A DNA stretch of 64,000 nt from an uncultured Anaerolineales bacterium (GTDB lineage: Bacteria > Chloroflexota > Anaerolineae > Anaerolineales > UBA11858). The notes below the pieces were generated by a model. It made no database searches and was not told the DNA's origin. It worked only from the letters and a program-made list of their open reading frames with translations. Positions within the stretch are counted from its first letter, which is position 1, and each line of letters opens with the position of its first letter. The position numbers and the translations under genes are program-made. The DNA lies in contig CAZIFI010000007.1 of the NCBI GenBank assembly GCA_964539105.1, positions 2,883 through 66,882 of the forward strand, written 5' to 3'. Positions 2,221-62,441 of the stretch are shown piece after piece.

Positions 2221-2907
2221 CTAGGATAAGCGAGGTTGATGATTTCCCGCGGAATGCACACTCAGGTTTCGCATCGGGGCAAACGACAATCGGTGAATGG
2301 GCGTCGGCCCCAGTTCATGGATGGCAGCGCGGTGATTCTGGGTGCCGTAGCCCTTGTTAGCGCTCAATTCATATCCCGGATAGGTTTGGGCCAGCTCAAC
2401 CAGGTGTGCATCCCGGATTGTTTTGGCGAGAATGGAGGCAGAAGCAATGCTCAAAGAACGGGCATCCCCCTTAACAAGCCAGGTTTGCGGGATGGGGTTA
2501 TCCGGGAGATAGAGATAGTCCAATAATAAATGCTGCGGTGAGGGCAGGATATTTTGTAAGGCTCGTTCAGCAGCCAGACGAACCGCAGGAAGGATTCCGT
2601 ACCGGTCGATTTCCTGGGGGGATGAAAAACCCACTCCCCATGCCAGAACTTCCTGGATGAGGGTGGTTTTTACCTCTTCTCGTCGGACAGGCGTCAGCTG
2701 TTTGGAATCCCGAACCTCCCCCAGTCTATCAAGACATGTCGGGTCCGGAGGAAGTAGTACGGCACCCGCAGCGACAGGTCCGGCCAGGGCTCCCCGGCCT
2801 GCCTCATCGATGCCCACCACAAATTGTATATCATTATTCCACAAGGAGGATTCAAACTGAAGATCAGGACAGGGTGGAATGAGACCAGGGTCAATTGTGG
2901 GGGTCAT
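2221..2907 (-). CDS. rnhB: Ribonuclease HII
   Basis: Signature GIDEAGRGALAGPVAAGAV plus KGDARSLSIASASILAK. The start was chosen at MTPTIDPG. Earlier in-frame starts would overlap the upstream GT2 gene more deeply. Confidence 0.9.
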   Translation of the reverse strand: MTPTIDPGLIPPCPDLQFESSLWNNDIQFVVGIDEAGRGALAGPVAAGAVLLPPDPTCLDRLGEVRDSKQLTPVRREEVKTTLIQEVLAWGVGFSSPQEIDRYGILPAVRLAAERALQNILPSPQHLLLDYLYLPDNPIPQTWLVKGDARSLSIASASILAKTIRDAHLVELAQTYPGYELSANKGYGTQNHRAAIHELGPTPIHRLSFAPMRNLSVHSAGNHQPRLS

Positions 2908-3622
2908 AGATTCCTTGTTGCTTATTTCGCCGGATTGTGAGGACATCCAACAGCATTCGAATCGCATCTCTGACCGCGTGAACTTTGCTTTCCTCGTCAA
3001 AATACCATGGGATGGGAACTTCTTTTATCTTATACCCACGCAACCGGGCAATGGTCAGGACTTCAATATCAAAGGACCAGCCAGGCAGGGTGGTGTGAGA
3101 GAAGAGATCTTCAGCGATGGGTGCCCGGAAGCACTTGAACCCGCATTGGGTGTCATGTAACCCGGGGAGAACTAGAAGCCGGATAAAGAAATTCATCAAC
3201 CTCCCTCCCAGATGCCGGTAATAGGGTTCATTGTAGCGGACAGATTCCGGCGCTTCCCGGGTGGCGATGGCTACATCAACATCATCTATTTGGGGCGGGA
3301 TAAACCGATTTAATTCCTGAATAGGCATGGAAAGGTCGGCGTCACACATAAAGCGGTATTCTCCCCGTCCGGATAACATACCCTTGCGGACCGCAGCGCC
3401 TTTGCCAGGTTGACTTTCATGGAGGCTGTGGATGATGTCCCATTCCTGGGCGTAATCCGCGATGATGTGTGGGGTGCGGTCAGTGCTGGCGTTGTCTACG
3501 ACGAGTATTTCCGCTGGATAAGATTGCTGGTGGAGAAATTCGAGGACCTGATCCAACGTGGCAGGGAGACGGTTCTCCTCATTGTATGCGGGAATGATCA
3601 GAGATAAAAAGGGTGTATCCAC
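2891..3622 (-). CDS. Family 2 glycosyltransferase (polyprenyl-phosphate sugar transferase-like)
   Basis: N-terminus LSLIIPAYNEENRL, VVDNASTDRT and a DAD-type motif (CDADLS) typical of the GT-A fold of GT2 enzymes. Confidence 0.85.
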   Translation of the reverse strand: MDTPFLSLIIPAYNEENRLPATLDQVLEFLHQQSYPAEILVVDNASTDRTPHIIADYAQEWDIIHSLHESQPGKGAAVRKGMLSGRGEYRFMCDADLSMPIQELNRFIPPQIDDVDVAIATREAPESVRYNEPYYRHLGGRLMNFFIRLLVLPGLHDTQCGFKCFRAPIAEDLFSHTTLPGWSFDIEVLTIARLRGYKIKEVPIPWYFDEESKVHAVRDAIRMLLDVLTIRRNKQQGIYDPHN

Positions 3623-12715: not shown

Positions 12716-13420
12716 ATGGAAATCACGTTAAAGATCTTTCGATATAACCCAGAGGACGACAAAAAAGGATATTTTGACACCTTTACCCTCGAGGCTGAAC
12801 CCACCGATCGCATACTGGACCTTTTAGAACGCATCAAGGGTACCATGGACGGCACTCTGGCATACCGCCGCTCTTGTGCTCACGGTGTGTGCGGCTCCGA
12901 TGCCATACGCATCAATGGCGTGAACCGGTTGGCATGCAAGGTGTTGGTGCAGGATCTGAAAAAGAAAAAGGTCACTATCGAACCTATCTTGGGTCTGGCC
13001 ATCGAAAAAGACCTCATCGTGGACATGGAACCGTTCTTTGATCACTACCGCAGCGTGCTTCCTTATTTTGTGAACGATGATCCTCCTCCCAGCAAGGAGC
13101 GTTTGCAAAGCCCTGAAGATCGGGCACGCTTTGATGACACCACAAAATGCATCCTGTGCGCGGCATGCACCACCTCCTGTCCTTCCTTCTGGGTCAATGA
13201 AGCGTATGTGGGACCGGCGGCCATCGTCACCGCTCATCGTTTTATTTATGACAGCCGGGACCAGGCCGCGGAAGAACGCCTGGAAATACTCAATGACCAG
13301 TTCGGTGTTTACCGCTGTCATACGATTTTCAACTGCACAGATGCCTGTCCGCGTGACATCGAAGTTACCCAGGCCATCGGGGAAGTTAAAAAATCAATCG
13401 CAACCGGAAAGGTTGAATAA
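12716..13420 (+). CDS. sdhB: Succinate dehydrogenase iron-sulfur subunit
   Basis: Cys clusters CAHGVCGSDA, CILCAACTTSCP and CHTIFNCTDACP for 2Fe-2S, 4Fe-4S and 3Fe-4S centres. Confidence 0.95.
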   Translation: MEITLKIFRYNPEDDKKGYFDTFTLEAEPTDRILDLLERIKGTMDGTLAYRRSCAHGVCGSDAIRINGVNRLACKVLVQDLKKKKVTIEPILGLAIEKDLIVDMEPFFDHYRSVLPYFVNDDPPPSKERLQSPEDRARFDDTTKCILCAACTTSCPSFWVNEAYVGPAAIVTAHRFIYDSRDQAAEERLEILNDQFGVYRCHTIFNCTDACPRDIEVTQAIGEVKKSIATGKVE

Positions 13421-13493: not shown

Positions 13494-13934
13494 TTACGGC
13501 TTCTGGGTGATGTAAAACTCGAGCTGGTTGATGCGCACCTGCTGGTTGCTTATGATTTGTTTAACGACATCGCCTATAGATATGATGCCAATCATCGTGC
13601 CCTCTTCCATCACAGGAAGGTGACGGATGTGGTTTTCCGTCATGAGGGACAGGCATTCCCGGGCTGTATGGGTGGGATTTACTCCCAGGACATCCTCTGT
13701 CATGATTTCTTTGACTTCGACCTCCTTGGGAGATTTCCCGTGCAGGGTAATTTTCCGGGCATAATCCCTTTCAGAGAAGATGCCTACCAGGGTATCGTCC
13801 TGGACGACGGGCATGGCACCTATATTTTTGTCTGCCATTTTTTCCAGAGCCTGATAAACGGTAGCCCCGGGTTCGATCGTCCATAAAGCATCGATCTCTT
13901 TCCCTTTTAGAATTTCCCTTACAGTCGCTTCCAT
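13494..13934 (-). CDS. CBS domain pair protein
   Basis: Two CBS repeats (GAMPVVQDDTLVGIFSERD and RHLPVMEEGTMIGIISIGD). Confidence 0.85.
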   Translation of the reverse strand: MEATVREILKGKEIDALWTIEPGATVYQALEKMADKNIGAMPVVQDDTLVGIFSERDYARKITLHGKSPKEVEVKEIMTEDVLGVNPTHTARECLSLMTENHIRHLPVMEEGTMIGIISIGDVVKQIISNQQVRINQLEFYITQKP

Positions 13935-14030: not shown

Positions 14031-14414
14031 CTATTTCCGGTAGCGTTTGGTAAACTCACGACCGAAGGGAAAGAGAGCCAGCGGGATGAGCTTGAGATGC
14101 TGTTTTCCAAAGGGGATTCCGATGATGGTGACCATCAGAATCAGGCCGTTGACCAGGTGGGCGACGGCGATTTCCCACCCGAAGAGTACCAGCCAGATCA
14201 AATTGAAAATGGTGTTTGCCGGGCTGTGGCCCCGCGGTTTGAGAACGATCTCTTCTCCAAAGGGGGTCAGGGTGGCCACCCCAATTTTGTAAGCCTGGAT
14301 GCCAAATGGGATACCAACAATGGTCAGGCACAGGACGGTGCCGCCGATAAAATATCCCAGCCCGGCTAAAAATCCGCCGAAAATAAACCAGATCACGTTC
14401 CCGATAAAGTTCAT
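14031..14414 (-). CDS. yccF: YccF-family inner membrane protein
   Basis: Duplicated motif GNVIWFIFGG...VGIPFGIQ and NLIWLVLFGWE...IGIPFGKQ, characteristic of the YccF domain. Confidence 0.85.
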   Translation of the reverse strand: MNFIGNVIWFIFGGFLAGLGYFIGGTVLCLTIVGIPFGIQAYKIGVATLTPFGEEIVLKPRGHSPANTIFNLIWLVLFGWEIAVAHLVNGLILMVTIIGIPFGKQHLKLIPLALFPFGREFTKRYRK

Positions 14415-14516
14415 TTTATCTCCTCCTTTCTGTATGGGTTCTATTAACAGTATACGGGATAGGTCCTGCTTTTGTTGCGCTGATTTGATAAAAAGAACGC
14501 AAATATCTATATGATG

Positions 14517-19998: not shown

Positions 19999-20586
19999 CT
20001 ACAATGAGCCTTTTGTGCTGGGCACCGTGCCGCCGCGCCGTTTGTCGATCCGGCAGGCTTCATCCAGAGCCCGCCCCAGCGCTTTAAACAAGGCTTCCGC
20101 TTTGTGATGGTCATCCCTGCCGTACAACACCCGGGCGTGCAGGTTGCAGCGCGCGGTTACGGCGAAGGATTCCAGGACATGGGGGAAGAGGGTGGTGGCA
20201 ATACCGCCCACGCGGGGAGACTGCCATTCCACCTGGATGACACTGTACGGTCGGCCGGAAAAATCCAGGGCGATATGAGCCAGGGTTTCGTCCATGGGGA
20301 CAAAGCTGTCACCCATGCGGGTGATGCCTTTTCGATCTCCAAGGGCCTGGTCAAAGGCCTGACCCAGCGCCAGGGCACAGTCCTCGACAGTGTGATGTTC
20401 ATCAACCTCCAGATCCCCCCGGGCAGTGAGCTGCAGGTCAAACAGGCCGTGCAGGGCGACGTGGGACAGCATGTGATCGAAAAAACCCAGCCCGGTATCA
20501 ATCTGGGCCTTCCCGGAGCCATCCAGGTTGAGATGGAGATCAATTTCAGTTTCCTGTGTTGTGCGTTTGATGTTTGCTTTTCGCAT
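19999..20586 (-). CDS. hisB: Imidazoleglycerol-phosphate dehydratase (monofunctional, no phosphatase domain)
   Basis: RTTQETEI...[18 protein letters not shown] and G.D.HH..EA.FKA motifs. At 195 aa it is too short to include an N-terminal HAD domain. Confidence 0.95.
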
Positions 20587-24076: not shown

Positions 24077-24110
24077 AAAAACAAAAAAGCGCCCTCCTCG
24101 CGGAGGACGC
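24077..24110 (-). terminator. Attenuator terminator immediately upstream of hisG
   Basis: Minus strand: GCGTCCTCC-GCGA-GGAGGGCGC (9-bp stem with one G-U pair, tetraloop) followed by TTTTTTGTTTTT. It lies 26 nt before the hisG ATG and 30 nt after the stop of the His-rich mini-ORF. Confidence 0.8.
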
Positions 24111-24140
24111 TGTGGATAATCTCGTTTGGTTGCAAGTACC

Positions 24141-24289: not shown

Positions 24290-25360
24290 TCAATTGGAGT
24301 ACCGCGCCCGATCGAAATCTTGAGCTGGCGGGTCATTTGTTGAAGATATTCCTGATATGACAGGTTCCCTCGGGGCGCGGATCGATACCACCCAGGCCCA
24401 GAGGAAAAATCCGGCTCCCAGCAGCGTCTGGATGAAGGAAAGTATCTCGTATAAACCCCGAAGGGCGGCAAGCGGGGGATGGTAGATCCCGGCTAACCCG
24501 TAAATTAAGCAGGCGCCCGCTGGTAGGGTCAGCAGGGGTAGGGTCTGGTGCCAGCTGACTCTGCCTTTCAAGGCTGTCAGCAGGCTGGTCCGGCCCGGAT
24601 TGCGTCTGCGGCTGATTTCCAGGGGAATCAGGACCAGGATGACCAGGGCCAGCAGCTTAAAGATTGCCAGGGGCAGGATCACAAAAACCTGGCTGATAAA
24701 GACCAGCAGGGTCAGGACCGCTAAAATCCCGAGCTCCCAGCTGTTGAGCTGGAATGAGCTCGCCCAGAAACCCACTCCGAGCAGCCAGTGAGCGGCCATC
24801 AGCATCCCGGTGAAGACCAGGGTGTAAACCAGGAAATCAGGGAATGGCCACGCTCCGGGGACCCACTGCTCCCCCTCTGCAAGCAGCCCTTGGAATTCCT
24901 GGACCGCTTCGGGAAGCCGGTAAGGCAGGGCCCACAATCCCCAGAATACTCCCAGGGCCAATCCGCCTCCCAGCAGGGTTTTCCAGCGCGATTCGATCAG
25001 GCAGGTCCGGATCCAGTAAATGCCGATCACCACACTCAATAAGCCGTGCCAGCCGATAAAATAGGCCGGCATCACGGGATCCAGCAGGCCGGCTTCATAA
25101 ATGACGGTTGTCAGCACCCCTTCCACGAGGAAACCGTATAGGGATCCAATCAGCACCACACCAGGTAAGGAAGCGACGCGAAAGAGGTCAATCAACCAGA
25201 GTGAAAAGGCTACGGGAAGGGCGTAAAAGAAGATCAGCTCCAGGATCGGGTATCCGCCGATGTACCAAAATATTTTTTCGGAAAAGAACACGATCACAGC
25301 TGTGCAGAGCAGCAGGAAGACGAAGTGCCGGAGGCTTTTAGGAAGATGATTGATTTTCAT
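24290..25360 (-). CDS. Polytopic membrane protein of unknown function (paralog of 26530..27579)
   Basis: About 9-10 predicted TM helices. Shares FFSE/FFAE, G(S/M)L(Y/F)G(F/L)xE(G/A)xLT and WH motifs with the other protein. Confidence 0.7.
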   Translation of the reverse strand: MKINHLPKSLRHFVFLLLCTAVIVFFSEKIFWYIGGYPILELIFFYALPVAFSLWLIDLFRVASLPGVVLIGSLYGFLVEGVLTTVIYEAGLLDPVMPAYFIGWHGLLSVVIGIYWIRTCLIESRWKTLLGGGLALGVFWGLWALPYRLPEAVQEFQGLLAEGEQWVPGAWPFPDFLVYTLVFTGMLMAAHWLLGVGFWASSFQLNSWELGILAVLTLLVFISQVFVILPLAIFKLLALVILVLIPLEISRRRNPGRTSLLTALKGRVSWHQTLPLLTLPAGACLIYGLAGIYHPPLAALRGLYEILSFIQTLLGAGFFLWAWVVSIRAPREPVISGISSTNDPPAQDFDRARYSN

Positions 25361-25421: not shown

Positions 25422-26594
25422 TCACCAGCCCCGGGCAGCTGCTTCCTGGAGGAAGGCTTCATAGCCAGGTTTGTCCTCCCCGTCCCCGGGATAGGTGCGC
25501 AGCCCCAGGGTGCGTAAAAATTCCCCGAAGGCCCGGCTGGAGAGGCCGTAATACTGTGTTAGCTTCTTCACGGAGGATCCGGGTAAATCCGAAAGCCAGG
25601 AGTAGGAGAGCAAGGTGATTTGCTCTGCGTGGTCGTCCCAGGCTGAGAACATGTGCCGGATGAATTCGGCCTGCTTTTGGGGGCTGCTCTCGTTGGCTTC
25701 TGCAGTCGGGTACCCGATTTCCGTGATGTGAATTTCCCGCTCTGGATAGGCTTCGACCAGACGCTGAAAATCCGATTGGATCACTGCCGGTTTCCTGACG
25801 GAGAAATCCCCCTGCAGCGGGTAGTACGTGGTCATGATCACGTCGCTGGATCGATTGAGCGATCGGGCGAATTCGGCGGAGGGTCCAAGCAGCCCTTCGA
25901 ACTGGACCTTGGTGCCGACCGGAACCCCGGGCCACAAGGAGCGGGCGTGGTCCGCCCCGGCGGCGTAAAAGGTCTGATATGCCCCCCAGGCGTCGGGATC
26001 TGCGCCCAGCACGCCGTCAATCTCGTTGCCAATGGCCAGCGATGTCAGCTCCAGGGCGGGGATCTGCGTGGCGATATAATCCAGCAGATCCTGAAAACGC
26101 TCAATCACCTGGGGGTGATCGAGGGGCTTCCCCTGCAGATCCCGCGGCAGGCGGATTTCCGTGGTATCCAGCACCGCGATCACCAGCGACAGGCGCAGTC
26201 CCTGGGCCGGGTAGTAGTCATTGGCGATAGCCAGCCAGTTGGGCTTAGGCTCATACACCCCGGGTGCGGGTTCCAGTTCATCCCAGAACACAGAAAGGCG
26301 GGTGGATTCTACCCCCAGCTGGCGGGCGTGTTCGACGGCCTGATCGTAATCGCCGTTCTGGGAGGGGTTGACATCCAGCTCCAGGGTCCTCTCACCCTTG
26401 GAAAGGGCCTCTTGCCTGATTACGGTATCCTGTTCGGGTGAGATGGTAGCGCTTACCTCCTCCCCGGATCCACCGCAGGCCAGGACAGACAGCAGCAGGG
26501 CGGAGAGAAATAGGAAATATCGAGGTGTCTTAGGCAAAGGTTTCCTTTTTCGAAGCGGAAGGTTTTTGAATGGTGAGCCGGACGGCTTTGGCAA
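25422..26594 (-). CDS. Secreted lipoprotein, clan GH-A-like (TIM-barrel) glycoside hydrolase
   Basis: Lipobox LLSVLAC-GG. LAIGNEIDG (candidate acid/base NE) and HITEIGYP (candidate nucleophile E) have the spacing typical of GH5-like enzymes. The start is uncertain because the ORF overlaps the upstream gene by 65 nt. Confidence 0.65.
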   Translation of the reverse strand: MPKPSGSPFKNLPLRKRKPLPKTPRYFLFLSALLLSVLACGGSGEEVSATISPEQDTVIRQEALSKGERTLELDVNPSQNGDYDQAVEHARQLGVESTRLSVFWDELEPAPGVYEPKPNWLAIANDYYPAQGLRLSLVIAVLDTTEIRLPRDLQGKPLDHPQVIERFQDLLDYIATQIPALELTSLAIGNEIDGVLGADPDAWGAYQTFYAAGADHARSLWPGVPVGTKVQFEGLLGPSAEFARSLNRSSDVIMTTYYPLQGDFSVRKPAVIQSDFQRLVEAYPEREIHITEIGYPTAEANESSPQKQAEFIRHMFSAWDDHAEQITLLSYSWLSDLPGSSVKKLTQYYGLSSRAFGEFLRTLGLRTYPGDGEDKPGYEAFLQEAAARGW

Positions 26595-27579
26595 ACATGA
26601 TCAGGCTGAAGAGGATGCCCCCGAACCAGAAAATCAGAGCCATAGGTTCGGCGACGGGAGCCAGAAGCAGTTTCCCGCTGACCGCTGCCACAGGGAAGAT
26701 CCCGGCCAATACCAGCCAGAATCGATCCGGTAAATTCTCCGGAACAGGAGTCCGGGGCACATTTCGCAGTTTTGATCCTGGTTTCAGACTCTGCCAGAGC
26801 AGGAAGAAGGAAAGAGCATACAGCAGCCAGATCAGGCCCTGTCCGATCAACCCGGGGATGGCTTCCGGGCGCATCACGGCGCCCATGATCAGGTAGAGCA
26901 GGGCGGTGGGGATGAGCAGTTGACGAAACTCCTTTTTACCCGGCAGCAGCTCACCCATGGTGTAGGATTGTTCCCGGGTGGCCCGGAGCCAGACTAGGAC
27001 CAGGCCGATCAAGACCGCGGTGGTGGAAAGGCCGGAGAGCAGCGACTGGTTGACGGAGGGTGAATTGATGCTCTGGAAGAACCCGCCGAAGATCACCAGG
27101 CCGACCAGTCCCCGGCGGCTGTTAAGCAGCCGGCCCACGGCGCCGGGAAGGCTCTGGCTGAGCGCCCAGGAGCGGGTGAGCAGCTTTTCCGCGATCAGCA
27201 GGGGAATGATGAAGGAGAACCAGGCATGCCACCAGAGCACCAGCACCAGGGTTTCAATGGGGGCCACGCCGCCGATGAGCAGGGCTTCCTCCCAGGTGGG
27301 CGCCCAGAGAATTTTGGTCAGGTAAGCTTCGTACAGTCCAAAGAGCATCCCGGCGAAGATCAGGCTGGGAAAGCGCGGCCGCGGCGTCCGGTAAACCAGA
27401 TGGGCGAGGACCAGGATGTGCAGGCCGTAAAGCGGGACCACCACCAGCAGGCCCCAGGCATGGAAGAAAGGGAACATGTCAGCACCGGAAAAGACCTCGG
27501 CAAAGAAGGTGGAGAAAGCGGCCAGGATCAGCCAGAAAAGGGCTTTATGCTTCCAGGGAATGGGATGTGTCTCTTGCAT
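26530..27579 (-). CDS. Polytopic membrane protein of unknown function (paralog of 24290..25360)
   Basis: About 9-10 TM helices, with shared motifs as above. It is the first gene after the putative ECF-type promoter copy B. Confidence 0.7.
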   Translation of the reverse strand: MQETHPIPWKHKALFWLILAAFSTFFAEVFSGADMFPFFHAWGLLVVVPLYGLHILVLAHLVYRTPRPRFPSLIFAGMLFGLYEAYLTKILWAPTWEEALLIGGVAPIETLVLVLWWHAWFSFIIPLLIAEKLLTRSWALSQSLPGAVGRLLNSRRGLVGLVIFGGFFQSINSPSVNQSLLSGLSTTAVLIGLVLVWLRATREQSYTMGELLPGKKEFRQLLIPTALLYLIMGAVMRPEAIPGLIGQGLIWLLYALSFFLLWQSLKPGSKLRNVPRTPVPENLPDRFWLVLAGIFPVAAVSGKLLLAPVAEPMALIFWFGGILFSLIMFAKAVRLTIQKPSASKKETFA

Positions 27580-27663: not shown

Positions 27664-27694
27664 GTACTACCTGAATATGTGGAAAAAGTTGCAC
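27664..27694 (-). promoter_or_regulatory. Putative ECF-sigma-dependent promoter (copy B)
   Basis: Minus strand: GTGCAACTTTTTC (27694-27682), 11 nt, GTAGTAC (27670-27664). The 13-mer is identical to the one upstream of the ECF sigma gene. Confidence 0.5.
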
Positions 27695-27716
27695 TCAGGG
27701 ATAAAAATGTCCCTGG

Positions 27717-27749
27717 AATAAAAAACCCAGCCTTGTAATCCAAGGCTGG
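27717..27749 (-). terminator. Rho-independent terminator of the sigma/anti-sigma/membrane operon
   Basis: Minus strand: CCCAGCCTTG-gatta-CAAGGCTGGG followed by TTTTTATT. Confidence 0.75.
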
Positions 27750-27777
27750 GGGTAGAGTGGAGGTGCGGAAATACGGG

Positions 27778-28266
27778 TTATTCTTCGGATTCCGAACCTT
27801 GTTTGGGTGGGAAGAAGGAAAGGATAGCAGCGCCGAAGCCTCGGAAGGTGAGATAGGGAAAAAGTAGGAACCAACCAATGACCGGGGTCAGGCTGGCCAA
27901 TATGACCACTGTGCTTCCCCAGATGAGTTGGAGAGGGGCATTTTTTGCAGGGAGCAGGCGGGTGCCTACCAGCTGGGCTAAAGCGCCTAATCCCATAATC
28001 AACCCCACCAGGAACACGCCGCTGATAGCAAAGGAGAGGATGAAGAACGGGCTGAATGTATCACCGACAGCCAGGGATCCAAGGGTAAGTGCCGAGGCGA
28101 ATAATGTGTTGACCAGGCCCAACCAAAATGAGCGTCTGGGTTGCGTCTGGACTGTGATTTGAATCCGTTCCATGCGTTGGGGAAAAAGCAGGCGCATGGT
28201 CAAAAAGAGGGCTAATATTGTCACTGCAGAAAACAGAATGAGGAGTAAAAGGGCAAGTGTTTCCAT
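27778..28266 (-). CDS. Small polytopic membrane protein, co-operonic with sigma/anti-sigma
   Basis: 162-aa protein with 4-5 hydrophobic helices. No recognised motif. Confidence 0.6.
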   Translation of the reverse strand: METLALLLLILFSAVTILALFLTMRLLFPQRMERIQITVQTQPRRSFWLGLVNTLFASALTLGSLAVGDTFSPFFILSFAISGVFLVGLIMGLGALAQLVGTRLLPAKNAPLQLIWGSTVVILASLTPVIGWFLLFPYLTFRGFGAAILSFFPPKQGSESEE

Positions 28267-28295
28267 GGTGTATCTCCCGTTTTTAAGGTAGGATT

Positions 28296-28898
28296 TTACA
28301 GGTTGAGCTCTCTTCGGAGGAGCAGGGTATTTCCGAGGATACCCAGCAGGGCAGCGGTCAGAAATACAGCCCAGAGGGGTTTGAAATGGTAGGCTGGAGC
28401 TGAAAGATGGGAATATACGCTTATCATTTGGTCAAATAAGGCTTGTAAACCCTGCAGCTGCGCCTGGATGTCAGCTGCCATGCCCAGCAGGTTGGCTTGG
28501 AGAATCACAACCCAGTTTATGAGAGAGATTTTCATCCCTTGAAAGAGGGGGAGGGCGAGGAGGATGGGAAGGGATAAGGCCAGCAGGACGACGGCTGCAG
28601 CAGCCTGGGCTGCGGTAATCCAGGGCAGGGCTGAGAAAACATCTTTCTCCGCTCTCAGCGATCGCAGGACTTGTGGGGCGAGGTCAACGCCCAGGGGAAG
28701 GTCAGGCAGTTCCTTTAACGTCATAAACGTGGATTGGAGTTCCTGCAGCCGCTCCTGACAGCTGTTGCACGATTCAAGGTGCTTCTTCACAGTCGTGTGC
28801 TCCATGGCTGTAAGTTCTCCGTCTAAATGGGCGTGGAGCATGTTTTCTTGGAGGTGATCGTCTTTCAGATGTGATCCTTTAATGTTATTTGCCTTCAT
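28296..28898 (-). CDS. Anti-sigma factor (zf-HC2 type) with TM segments
   Basis: N-terminal H-x3-C-x2-C zinc motif (HLESCNSCQERL), followed by TM helices. Overlaps the sigma gene by 14 nt. Confidence 0.8.
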   Translation of the reverse strand: MKANNIKGSHLKDDHLQENMLHAHLDGELTAMEHTTVKKHLESCNSCQERLQELQSTFMTLKELPDLPLGVDLAPQVLRSLRAEKDVFSALPWITAAQAAAAVVLLALSLPILLALPLFQGMKISLINWVVILQANLLGMAADIQAQLQGLQALFDQMISVYSHLSAPAYHFKPLWAVFLTAALLGILGNTLLLRRELNL

Positions 28899-29439
28899 AT
28901 TTCCTCAGCAGTTCTGATAATTTGTTCCGGGCGCGGTACAGATGACTGCGCACGGTGTTGAGGGGGATCTCGAGCTCATCCGCTATTTCCTGGTAAGAAA
29001 GGTCCTGAAAGTGACGCAGCTCGATGGCCACCCGGTGGTGTGGGGGCAGCTGCCACAGGGCCTGATAAATCTTTTCCTGGCGCTCATTCTTGATCAGCCA
29101 CGCCTCGGGTGTCTTTCCTCCCCCGCTTTTGGGGATGTCGTGTTCGTCCAGCAAAGGCATACTGGGCGGTTGGGATTGGTTCAAATGGTTGTAGCATAAG
29201 TTGGCTGCTACCGTCCGGACCCAGGGGCCAAAAGGACGCTCCATGTCGAAGCTGTCCAGGTGGTGATAAGCGCGGAGAAAGGTGTCCTGGGTGAGGTCCT
29301 CGGCATCACGGCGGTTCCCCAGGATACGGAAGCACACGCTGAAAACCGAGGATTGATATTCTCGAACCAGGTCGCCGTAAGCCTCAAGGTCACCCTGCAG
29401 CGTGTCCTGTATGTGGTCGCGATCTGATGATTCGGCCAT
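28885..29439 (-). CDS. ECF (group 4) RNA polymerase sigma factor
   Basis: Region 2 (YGDLVREYQSSVFSVCFRILGNRRDAEDLTQDTFLRAY) and region 4 (LSYQEIADELEIPLNTVRSHLYRARNKL). Confidence 0.9.
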   Translation of the reverse strand: MAESSDRDHIQDTLQGDLEAYGDLVREYQSSVFSVCFRILGNRRDAEDLTQDTFLRAYHHLDSFDMERPFGPWVRTVAANLCYNHLNQSQPPSMPLLDEHDIPKSGGGKTPEAWLIKNERQEKIYQALWQLPPHHRVAIELRHFQDLSYQEIADELEIPLNTVRSHLYRARNKLSELLRKYEGK

Positions 29440-29448
29440 GTCTGTATT

Positions 29449-29480
29449 GTATTACAGGAAGAGGGGTGAAAAAGTTGCAC
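29449..29480 (-). promoter_or_regulatory. Putative autoregulatory ECF-type promoter (copy A)
   Basis: Minus strand: GTGCAACTTTTTC (29480-29468), 12 nt, GTAATAC (29455-29449). Only 9 nt lie between this -10-like box and the sigma ATG. Confidence 0.5.
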
Positions 29481-29551
29481 CTGCGGGGGTGATTATGCAT
29501 TCCTTGTCCCCCTGTTGGGAGGGTGCTATAATTTTGATGAATTCCGTTTTT

Positions 29552-29626
29552 GCCCCGGTGGCTCAATCTGGATAGAGCAAGGCTCTCCTAAAGCCTAGGT
29601 TGTGGGTTCGAATCCCGCCCGGGGCA
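29552..29626 (+). tRNA. tRNA-Arg (anticodon CCT)
   Basis: Acceptor GCCCCGG/CCGGGGC, D arm GCTC-AATCTGGATA-GAGC, anticodon arm AGGCT-CTCCTAA-AGCCT, T arm GTGGG-TTCGAAT-CCCGC, discriminator A. Confidence 0.9.
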
Positions 29627-29637
29627 CTTATATTTGT

Positions 29638-61277: not shown

Positions 61278-62441
61278 ATGTGGAAGTATTTAGGCAAGAG
61301 ATTGATACAGATAATTATTACACTGCTTCTGTTTCAGATTGTGACGTATGTCTTAATGGACGCGCAGCCCGGGGACATCGCTGATCTGCTGACCATGAAT
61401 CCTGACATCCCTCCCAGCGAAAGAGAACGACTGCGAAGGGATCTCGGGTTGGATAAGCCACCCCTGGAACGAGCTGTGACCTATATCAGCAACTTTTACA
61501 AAGGGGATCTGGGGATATCCTTTTCCCAATATCCACGTCCGGTGACGGAAATTATTTTTGAACGCCTGCCCCGCACCCTGGTTTTGTTCTTGACGGCATC
61601 CATTGTCTCATTCTGGACGGGATTTTCTACCGGCAAAGTTCTGGCATGGAAGCGAGGGGGATTTATCGAATATTCGTCGACGCTGATTGGAGTGGTCCTG
61701 TACACGGTGTTTACGCCGTGGTTTGCCTTGATGATGATCTGGATTTTTTCTGTCCAGCTGGGGTGGTTGCCAGGAGGAAAATTCCTGGATCCTATCAAGT
61801 GGCTTAATTCACCGGAGACGGTGACTGCCAATGTGATCTTTGGACGCATGATCCTGACAGCCACCATCGCTGCTGTTGTGATGGTAATTGGCTTATGGCT
61901 TTCCTCCCGACTTCCCCGCAAGGTGAGGCCTCTTGGACGTTGGACCAGTGTCATCGTTCCCTATGCGGCGGCCGTGCTGTACTGGGTGGTTGGAACGGGT
62001 GGTCTGGGGGTGTATGCCTGGGATATCCTATCCCATCTGGTATTGCCCGTCTTGACGGTGACCCTGATTGCCTACGGCGGTAATATGCTGCTGACCAGGA
62101 CCAGCATGTTAGAAACCATGCGGGAGGACTATATCTTGACGGCCAAGGCCAAGGGCCTTCCTGAAAAAGTTGTCCGTGATAAACACGCAGCCCGCAATGC
62201 CCTCCTCCCGGTGTGGACAGGGTTGGTGTTCAGCATCGGGGCATCCGTCAGCGGTGGTATCATCACGGAAACGATATTTTCCTGGCCCGGGATCGGTTTG
62301 ACGCTGCTTAATTCGGTTCAGGTCGAAGATATTCCTCTGGCCATGGGTGCGCTGCAGGTCACCGGTGTGTTGACCCTGGTCAGCCACCTGGTCGCTGATA
62401 TTGGTTACGCCTTTCTGGATCCCCGGATCCGATATGACTAG
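61278..62441 (+). CDS. ABC transporter permease (DppB/OppB type)
   Basis: Conserved N-terminus YLGKRLIQIIITLL and the EAA-loop region (REDYILTAKAKGL....V..KHA.RNAL). ATG follows AAGGAG. Confidence 0.88.
   Translation: MWKYLGKRLIQIIITLLLFQIVTYVLMDAQPGDIADLLTMNPDIPPSERERLRRDLGLDKPPLERAVTYISNFYKGDLGISFSQYPRPVTEIIFERLPRTLVLFLTASIVSFWTGFSTGKVLAWKRGGFIEYSSTLIGVVLYTVFTPWFALMMIWIFSVQLGWLPGGKFLDPIKWLNSPETVTANVIFGRMILTATIAAVVMVIGLWLSSRLPRKVRPLGRWTSVIVPYAAAVLYWVVGTGGLGVYAWDILSHLVLPVLTVTLIAYGGNMLLTRTSMLETMREDYILTAKAKGLPEKVVRDKHAARNALLPVWTGLVFSIGASVSGGIITETIFSWPGIGLTLLNSVQVEDIPLAMGALQVTGVLTLVSHLVADIGYAFLDPRIRYD

Follow-up and report, generated by a model that had tools for sequence, protein, structure and literature searches.

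A putative ECF sigma factor promoter motif shared by a sigma/anti-sigma operon and the operon that follows it in an uncultured Anaerolineales bacterium

Introduction

Sigma factors of the extracytoplasmic function (ECF) type show several hallmarks, namely an AAC-containing -35 element, a -10 element of the CGT type, co-transcription with an anti-sigma factor and autoregulation (PMC8103513), and the models of their promoters use spacers of 16-18 bp (PMC7776599). Here we examine two copies of a motif of this kind, referred to as P1 and P2, in DNA of an uncultured Anaerolineales bacterium of the phylum Chloroflexota (assembly GCA_964539105.1, contig CAZIFI010000007.1, positions 2,883 to 66,882 of the forward strand). 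This whole stretch of 64,000 nucleotides is called the window below. P1 lies directly upstream of an operon for an ECF sigma factor, an anti-sigma factor and a third membrane protein, and P2 lies between this operon and the next one, which encodes two membrane proteins and a lipoprotein. Our results indicate that P1 and P2 are probably a pair of promoters for the RNA polymerase holoenzyme that contains the neighbouring sigma factor, which is SigW/RpoE-like.

Among the described systems, SigW-RsiW offers the closest comparison. It pairs an ECF sigma factor that is autoregulated from PsigW with a zinc-binding membrane anti-sigma factor of class I, and SigW recognizes the consensus TGAAAC-N16-CGTA. 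The closest solved structure to the sigma protein of the window is Bacillus subtilis SigW (5wuq, E 1.2e-28), followed by AlgU and RpoE, and its best NCBIfam model is also that of SigW (NF007223 / TIGR02948). However, the scores stay below the equivalog cutoffs (131 vs 209 bits and 119.8 vs 243.1 bits, respectively), and the protein is therefore SigW-like, not a SigW orthologue. As in SigW-RsiW, the anti-sigma factor has an N-terminal zinc-finger domain and a membrane anchor, GTA occurs in the -10 element about 16-17 nt past the -35 hexamer, and the sigma gene appears to have its own promoter and to be co-transcribed with the anti-sigma gene. In addition, the -35 box of the window, TGCAACTTTTT, resembles the SigW box ATTGAAACCTTT (PMC8103513). 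On the other hand, the anti-sigma factor of the window has two transmembrane (TM) helices and a short loop instead of one TM helix and a larger extracytoplasmic domain, and the operon has a third conserved gene for a protein with four TM helices (4-TM). The motifs differ as well, with GCAAC in the window and GAAAC for SigW in the -35 element, and TGTA or GGTA as opposed to CGTA in the -10 element. Finally, the targets in the window and its relatives (AF_0692, a clan GH-A lipoprotein, DUF1800 and DUF1501) are unrelated to the SigW regulon, and the window comes from a different phylum, the Chloroflexota (Anaerolineales).

The -10 element of Escherichia coli RpoE is TCAAA, whereas that of the window is based on GTA, and the target genes of the two systems also differ. 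The window has no RseB or RseC homologues, and its anti-sigma factor is of the ZAS type. What the window has in common with RpoE-RseA is a homologous sigma factor (1or7, E 1.3e-22), a predicted membrane anti-sigma factor and, presumably, an autoregulated sigma gene and an envelope-directed output. As in the -35 element of RpoE, which is GGAACTT-like, the AAC is followed by TT (PMC8103513). The ZAS anti-sigma factors RsrA, ChrR and RslA provide a third comparison, because the protein of the window has an HxxxCxxC motif, a zf-HC2 domain above the cutoff and weak NCBIfam matches to RsrA and ChrR. The NCBIfam scores are far below the cutoffs of the RsrA and ChrR models, however, and the protein is embedded in the membrane, unlike the soluble RsrA and ChrR. 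The main text of the ECF reclassification paper names no Chloroflexi group (PMC7826278), and our searches of the literature on DUF1800 or DUF1501 with ECF, and on Anaerolinea with ECF, found nothing specific. Judged by its sequence, the system appears to be of the ordinary autoregulated ECF circuit type, here in an unstudied bacterial group.

Two copies of the motif

Both copies are read on the minus strand. At P1, the extended -35 box GTGCAACTTTTTC (29468..29480, with the core GCAAC at 29474-29478) is followed, 18 nt past GCAAC, by the -10 region CTGTAATAC (29449..29457, with GTAATAC at 29449-29455). The start region AATACAGAC (29440..29448) occupies the 9 nt between the end of GTAATAC at 29449 and the sigma ATG at 29439, so that the site reads GTGCAACTTTTTC-ACCCCTCTTCCT-GTAATAC-AATACAGAC-ATG over 29480-29437, with ACCCCTCTTCCT as a 12-nt spacer. 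At P2, an exact match to the P1 box, GTGCAACTTTTTC (27682..27694), is followed by the -10 region AGGTAGTAC (27664..27672), in which GTAGTAC is at 27664-27670 and GTA begins 17 nt past GCAAC. This site reads GTGCAACTTTTTC-CACATATTCAG-GTAGTAC over 27694-27664, with the 11-nt spacer CACATATTCAG. The 13-mer GTGCAACTTTTTC occurs exactly twice in the window. The first-pass annotation of this DNA had described two identical copies of a 13-nt motif, the second of them past the terminator of the sigma operon and about 85 nt before the next gene, each with an AAC-type -35 box and a short -10 box. All of this is reproduced by the exact matches at 29480-29449 and 27694-27664, by a terminator hairpin (27750-27726) just upstream of P2, by the 84 nt that separate P2 from the ATG of the next gene (27579), and by a distance of 17-18 nt between the two boxes.

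The consensus of P1 and P2 consists of tGCAACTT(tt) as the -35 element, an interval of 17-18 nt, (c)tGTAsTAc as the -10 element and a conserved (Y)AGA about 10 nt further; in spacer form it is tGCAACTT-N15/16-cTGTAsTAc. If G-T-A is taken as positions -12 to -10, in line with ECF -10 geometry, transcription would start on the A of the conserved (Y)AGA. The P1 transcript would thus begin at about 29443, and its leader would span about 4 nt and lack a Shine-Dalgarno sequence. The P2 transcript would begin at about 27658, at the A within TACATAGAAC, and would have a leader some 79 nt long.

Repeated 13-mers are frequent in the window, with 166 pairs observed compared with about 99 in Markov-1 shuffles. 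The 13-mer repeat alone is not significant, and the case therefore rests on its context and on the comparison with other genomes. A two-block position weight matrix was built from 15 P1 and P2 sites of other genomes only, with the window and its relative at 92% sigma identity left out. When both strands of the window were scanned with this matrix (128 kb of strand), P1 ranked first with 33.2 bits and P2 second with 20.2 bits, and the third-best score was 8.0 bits. The best scores in 30 shuffled windows had a mean of 8.9 bits and a maximum of 13.7 bits.

A strict form of the pattern, GTGCAACTTTTTC-N10-13-GTARTAC, was also scanned over 185,579 species genomes (596 Gb). It matched 19 stretches, compared with about 9 expected by chance in a uniform-composition estimate: 6 were homologous Anaerolineales sites, 6 belonged to one Poribacteria locus, and the other 7 were spread over six scattered loci. 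The nearest genome is the Anaerolineales metagenome-assembled genome (MAG) GSL_GB14_7, at 92% sigma identity. In this whole MAG the strict pattern occurs twice only, as P1 and P2, which are 1786 nt apart as in the window. This result answers the concern that the motif might be a dispersed repeat. An Rfam search over the intergenic regions that contain P1 and P2 matched no family apart from a tRNA. Because the genome-wide scan was limited to the strict pattern, a regulon of two promoters is a minimum.

Conservation upstream of the sigma gene

For P1, we compared 12 orthologous regions upstream of sigma genes at 52-92% sigma identity, to which L112 was added as a 13th locus. A scan of metagenomes for related loci yielded, among the matches listed, mostly distant ECFs at 30-39% identity, and the useful ones were L003-L008. 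Across the 12 aligned sequences, no columns are invariant other than those of GCAAC, CTGTA-TA and the ..A-AG..ATG block; the TT after GCAAC is nearly invariant, and the 12-13 nt between the two boxes and all sequence 5' of GCAAC vary freely. The same P1 pattern was found in L112. The spacing from GCAAC to GTA is 17 or 18 nt in every orthologue, and AATAyAGAC-ATG is kept in orthologues at 55-92% sigma identity. In the -35 element, the AAC of GCAAC is invariant; in the -10 element, which is (C/T)TGTA or GGTA, the GT is kept and the C of CGT is not. Conservation upstream of orthologous sigma genes had been suggested as a check on the motif, and the two boxes and the start region proved to be the sole conserved blocks there. 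The motif is conserved directly 5' of the sigma gene in 13 loci, where it may mediate positive autoregulation.

In a distant branch that comprises L004, L006 and L007, GCGAC or GCGAT replaces GCAAC with the spacing unchanged, and the GCGAC branch has a longer leader that contains AAGGA. Co-variation of this change with the sigma-4 recognition helix is suggestive; it is not clean because L005 pairs a variant helix with GCAAC.

The sigma gene is divergent from a tRNA-Arg(CCT) gene, which together with its promoter TTGTCC-17-TGcTATAAT occupies 29504-29627 on the plus strand, and only about 25 bp separate this promoter from the P1 -35 box. The back-to-back layout and both promoters are kept in most of the relatives that were compared, namely L097, L083, L085, L086, L107, L109, L112 and L003. 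The upstream tRNA is further away in L099, and no such tRNA promoter was seen in L110, L111 or L005. Since the tRNA-Arg gene uses the canonical TTGaCa-17-TGnTATAAT in this lineage, P1 and P2 clearly represent a different promoter class.

Conservation of the second site

A two-block motif of the P2 type follows the terminator of the sigma operon in 8-9 further lineages. The sequence TGCAACTT is found at the place of P2 in L097, L099, L102/L112, L107, L109, L110, L111 and L008, and the counterpart in L007 is GCGAC-N18-GTAC. In relatives at 55-60% identity, the sigma operon ends with a hairpin and a T-run, and TGCAACTT..-N..-TGTAsTAc follows within about 15-30 nt. The P2 sites of the relatives have GTA-TA(C) and then (Y)AGA about 10 nt further on. 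The relative at 92% is uninformative for P2 because it is too close, with an intergenic identity of 94%. As far as a comparison of sequences tests it, the recurrence of P2 supports the earlier proposal that the downstream operon belongs to the ECF regulon.

Proposed circuit and alternative explanations

In the circuit that we propose, the membrane ZAS anti-sigma factor would sequester the sigma factor in the unstressed cell. A signal from the envelope or membrane, in whose detection the co-transcribed 4-TM protein might take part, would free the sigma factor through either regulated proteolysis or zinc/thiol chemistry. Free sigma factor would then fire P1, resulting in positive autoregulation of the sigma/anti-sigma/4-TM operon through an almost leaderless mRNA. 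It would also fire P2 and so drive the genes for the membrane protein of the AF_0692 family, the lipoprotein of clan GH-A and a protein with about nine TM helices (9-TM).

Several observations weigh against this circuit. The -10 element is TGTA or GGTA and not the textbook CGT, and P1 contains TACAAT, a good housekeeping -10 element that would put +1 at the A of the ATG. The motif might also be read by another ECF paralogue from a different part of the genome. None of the RNA runs searched contained the window locus or the L099 or L102 loci, and the window locus was found in microbial-mat DNA metagenomes only. Furthermore, AF_0692 follows the sigma operon in L083, L085 and L089 (75-77% sigma identity), yet none of the three has a P2-like site, their matrix scores being -4 to -13 at best. 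L086, where the gene that comes next is cut off, has no P2-like site either (best score -14). Because the gene order is kept without P2 in the 75-77% clade, the P2 wiring can be lost or replaced. The two-promoter regulon put forward in the first-pass annotation is supported for both promoters, with the limits that two is a minimum and that one clade lacks P2.

It is unlikely that P1 is mainly a promoter of the housekeeping sigma factor, with TACAAT (29445-29450) as its -10 element, a start at the A of the ATG, a leaderless transcript and GCAAC as, for example, a regulator site. A -10 hexamer 6 nt before an ATG is the classic leaderless geometry, and TACAAT is conserved in most P1 sites at exactly this distance of 6 nt. 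However, there is no TTGACA-like box 16-18 nt upstream of TACAAT and no TGn extension, and a sigma-70 scan yielded no promoter for P1 on this strand. The invariance of GCAAC at a fixed 17-18 nt from GTA likewise does not fit, nor does P2, which has GCAAC and GTAsTAC but no TAnnnT hexamer across lineages. Moreover, L005 has GTAGTAAGGTAT in place of TACAAT and still retains GCAAC-N18-GTA. The ECF and housekeeping readings of P1 might also coexist, with TACAAT giving basal transcription.

We give little credence to the alternative that the motif is an ECF promoter for another ECF sigma factor elsewhere in the genome, in which case its adjacency to the sigma gene would be incidental or would reflect cross-regulation. 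ECF paralogues with overlapping specificity are common, and the yccF sites nearby have a related but distinct consensus, AAC-N17-CGTATA. Nevertheless, the motif lies directly 5' of the sigma gene in every orthologue examined and is re-used directly 3' of the operon, and the window contains no ECF paralogue. Finally, that the two copies arose by chance recurrence, by recent local duplication or as a dispersed repeat, with no promoter function, is highly improbable: although exact 13-mer repeats are frequent in the window, both matrix scores exceed the null maximum, both sites are conserved across genomes while the surrounding intergenic DNA diverged, the MAG of the 92% relative has only two strict copies, and neither intergenic region matches an Rfam family.

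A reading of P1 and P2 by the adjacent sigma factor would provide a testable promoter consensus and a minimal regulon for an ECF sigma factor that is conserved across uncultured Anaerolineales. It would tie five families of unknown function, namely a new family of GH-A lipoproteins, the 4-TM proteins, AF_0692, DUF1800 and DUF1501, to one envelope-signalling switch, would aid genome annotation, and could yield an orthogonal sigma/promoter pair for synthetic biology; the general understanding of ECF systems would be unchanged. A more tentative extension is that the motif could be the signature promoter of an undescribed Anaerolineales-wide ECF module, with an extracytoplasmic machine for glycan or envelope remodelling (4-TM, DUF1800, AF_0692, GH-A lipoprotein and DUF1501) as its conserved output and an essentially leaderless sigma mRNA with an invariant AGAC-AUG start. 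If this were true, the module would give access for the first time to the regulation of DUF1800 and DUF1501, a widespread pair, and the AGAC-AUG initial sequence would bring a level of translational control into the autoregulatory loop.

Genes of the sigma operon

All genes of the sigma operon are on the minus strand. The sigma gene (28885..29439) encodes a protein of 184 aa with the Pfam domains Sigma70_r2 (residues 24-89, 2.9e-19) and Sigma70_r4_2 (residues 122-174, 1.5e-17) and no Pfam match to region 1 or region 3. The protein scores 115.5 bits with the sigma70-ECF model TIGR02937, for which the cutoff is 42.9, and no second ECF sigma factor is encoded in the window. The anti-sigma gene (28296..28898) has the same orientation and shares 14 nt with the 3' end of the sigma gene, and this pairing is kept in all relatives. 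It encodes a protein of 200 aa with an N-terminal zf-HC2/ZAS domain (Pfam zf-HC2 1.3e-07, 32 bits against a cutoff of 22.2) and, according to hydropathy, two predicted TM helices separated by a loop of about 55 aa. The HxxxCxxC motif of the protein is HLESCNSC and is kept in L097, L099, L089 and L100. With its H-x3-C-x2-C motif and a zf-HC2 match above the cutoff, the protein can be assigned from its sequence to class I of the ZAS anti-sigma factors, with zinc binding as a prediction. The Sigma70 domains and the overlapping zf-HC2 gene agree with the identities that had been proposed for the sigma and anti-sigma genes.

The third gene (27778..28266) encodes a protein of 162 aa with about four TM helices by hydropathy and no known family. 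It always comes after the sigma and anti-sigma genes in the relatives, and a paralogue of its product (30% identity, E 2e-12) is encoded by the gene that headed the ancestral P2 operon. The sigma operon ends at a strong intrinsic terminator (27716..27750, minus strand) with a 10-bp stem and a T-run, and an equivalent terminator precedes P2 in the relatives. In the metagenome contig L006, the region 3' of the 4-TM gene (about 2700-3164) contains a GC-rich unit (..GGACTTCCCGGAAGTC..) that is about 130 nt long and repeated several times in tandem.

The P2 operon

The genes downstream of P2 are also on the minus strand. The first (26530..27579) encodes a polytopic membrane protein of 349 aa, labelled as AF_0692 family (PF27245) in precomputed Pfam results, with at least 7 TM helices by hydropathy. 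Wherever the sequence of a relative extends far enough, AF_0692 is found downstream of the sigma module. Upstream of the AF_0692 gene, L083 (3266-3441) and L085 (1833-2010) have a block in common, GACTATACGAA(A/G)(G/C)AAT, which might act as a regulatory site or as a promoter in place of P2.

The second gene (25422..26537) encodes a lipoprotein of 371 aa with the lipobox LAC. Its AlphaFold2 model has a predicted local distance difference test (pLDDT) score of 92.8 and a predicted template modelling (pTM) score of 0.86. With Foldseek, the model matched GH5_18 exo-mannosidases, PslG and GH53 galactanase (E about 1e-13); with GH1 included, the matches had a probability of 1.0, E values from 7e-14 to 1e-10 and a TM-score of about 0.6. 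Residues G170-N171-E172 and E273 are invariant in 42 homologues; in the model, the former directly follow the strand 164-169, and E273 lies within the strand 269-274. The modelled protein is placed in clan GH-A, as a predicted hydrolase, by its (beta/alpha)8 barrel, by Asn-Glu in the position of the acid/base behind strand 4 and by a Glu in that of the nucleophile on strand 7. The label of glycoside hydrolase (GH) lipoprotein given in the first-pass annotation is upheld by the clan GH-A model, the Foldseek matches and the invariant N171-E172 and E273. The protein has no CAZy family assignment, because it has no match in a Pfam search and a precomputed match to PF07745 exists in only a few of its homologues.

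The third gene (24290..25360) encodes a membrane protein of 356 aa with about nine TM helices by hydropathy and no known family; homologues are found in the same operon in L097 and L112. A strong terminator-like hairpin with a T-run (24088..24111, minus strand) lies 180 nt past this last P2 gene and before hisG. It could be the terminator of the P2 operon or a leader/attenuator of the his genes. The end of the P2 operon can be placed here only tentatively, because the last P2 gene and the hairpin are separated by a promoter of the sigma-70 type, TTTACA-17-TACAAT with TG (24260-24232, minus strand).

The P2 operon of the relatives is longer and contains the 4-TM paralogue, DUF1800, AF_0692 and DUF1501; only some lineages also have the GH-A lipoprotein and proteins of the 9-TM type. 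Comparison of the gene contents shows that the P2 operon of the window is a trimmed copy of this conserved longer operon. The 4-TM paralogue and DUF1800 have been lost in the lineage of the window, and P2 therefore abuts AF_0692. In L099, a short decayed open reading frame that starts with MADMYLIFGSL lies between P2 and the AF_0692 homologue (about 2230-2400, reverse orientation), and it resembles the 4-TM paralogue of 168 aa with which the P2 operon begins in other genomes. This stub marks an intermediate step toward the deletion seen in the lineage of the window.

Other sites with similar motifs

The sole further match to the 13-mer with up to 2 mismatches in the window, at 62163-62175, has no GTA at the proper distance and lies in coding-like sequence, and it was rejected. 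A search for GCAAC-N17/18-GTA also matched at 13400 (plus strand), which is at the end of an open reading frame, and at 20147 (minus strand). Both were judged to be chance matches with low matrix scores. The same search identified a possible third promoter, GCGCAAC-N18-GTATAC..ATAGAAC (14446..14478, minus strand; match at 14478-14453), which precedes by about 30 nt the gene pair of yccF (14031-14414) and a gene for a CBS-domain protein (13494-13934). In five relatives, yccF comes directly after the sigma module and has xxAAC-N17-CGTATATAAT upstream. The yccF sites have their own consensus, which includes TATAAT. Under the P1/P2 matrix they score only -3.6 to +3.7 bits (-2.2 for the site in the window), and because of this poor fit their membership in the regulon is uncertain. 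The yccF site could be a third member of the regulon, a target of another ECF sigma factor or a housekeeping promoter.

Outside the Anaerolineales, GTGCAACTTTTTC-N11-GTAGTAC is present in six Poribacteria MAGs (L090 at 2366-2396, L092, L093, L101, L104 and L106). There it lies upstream of a gene for a secreted CBM9/DUF5916 protein, which is followed by one for a DUF5694 protein, and no ECF sigma gene is adjacent. This locus was rejected as a part of the present system, since its downstream genes encode these two proteins and not an ECF sigma factor. The Poribacteria site scores 31.3 bits under the Anaerolineales matrix, and it may reflect either an ECF sigma factor of related specificity in another phylum or a chance match fixed in one lineage.

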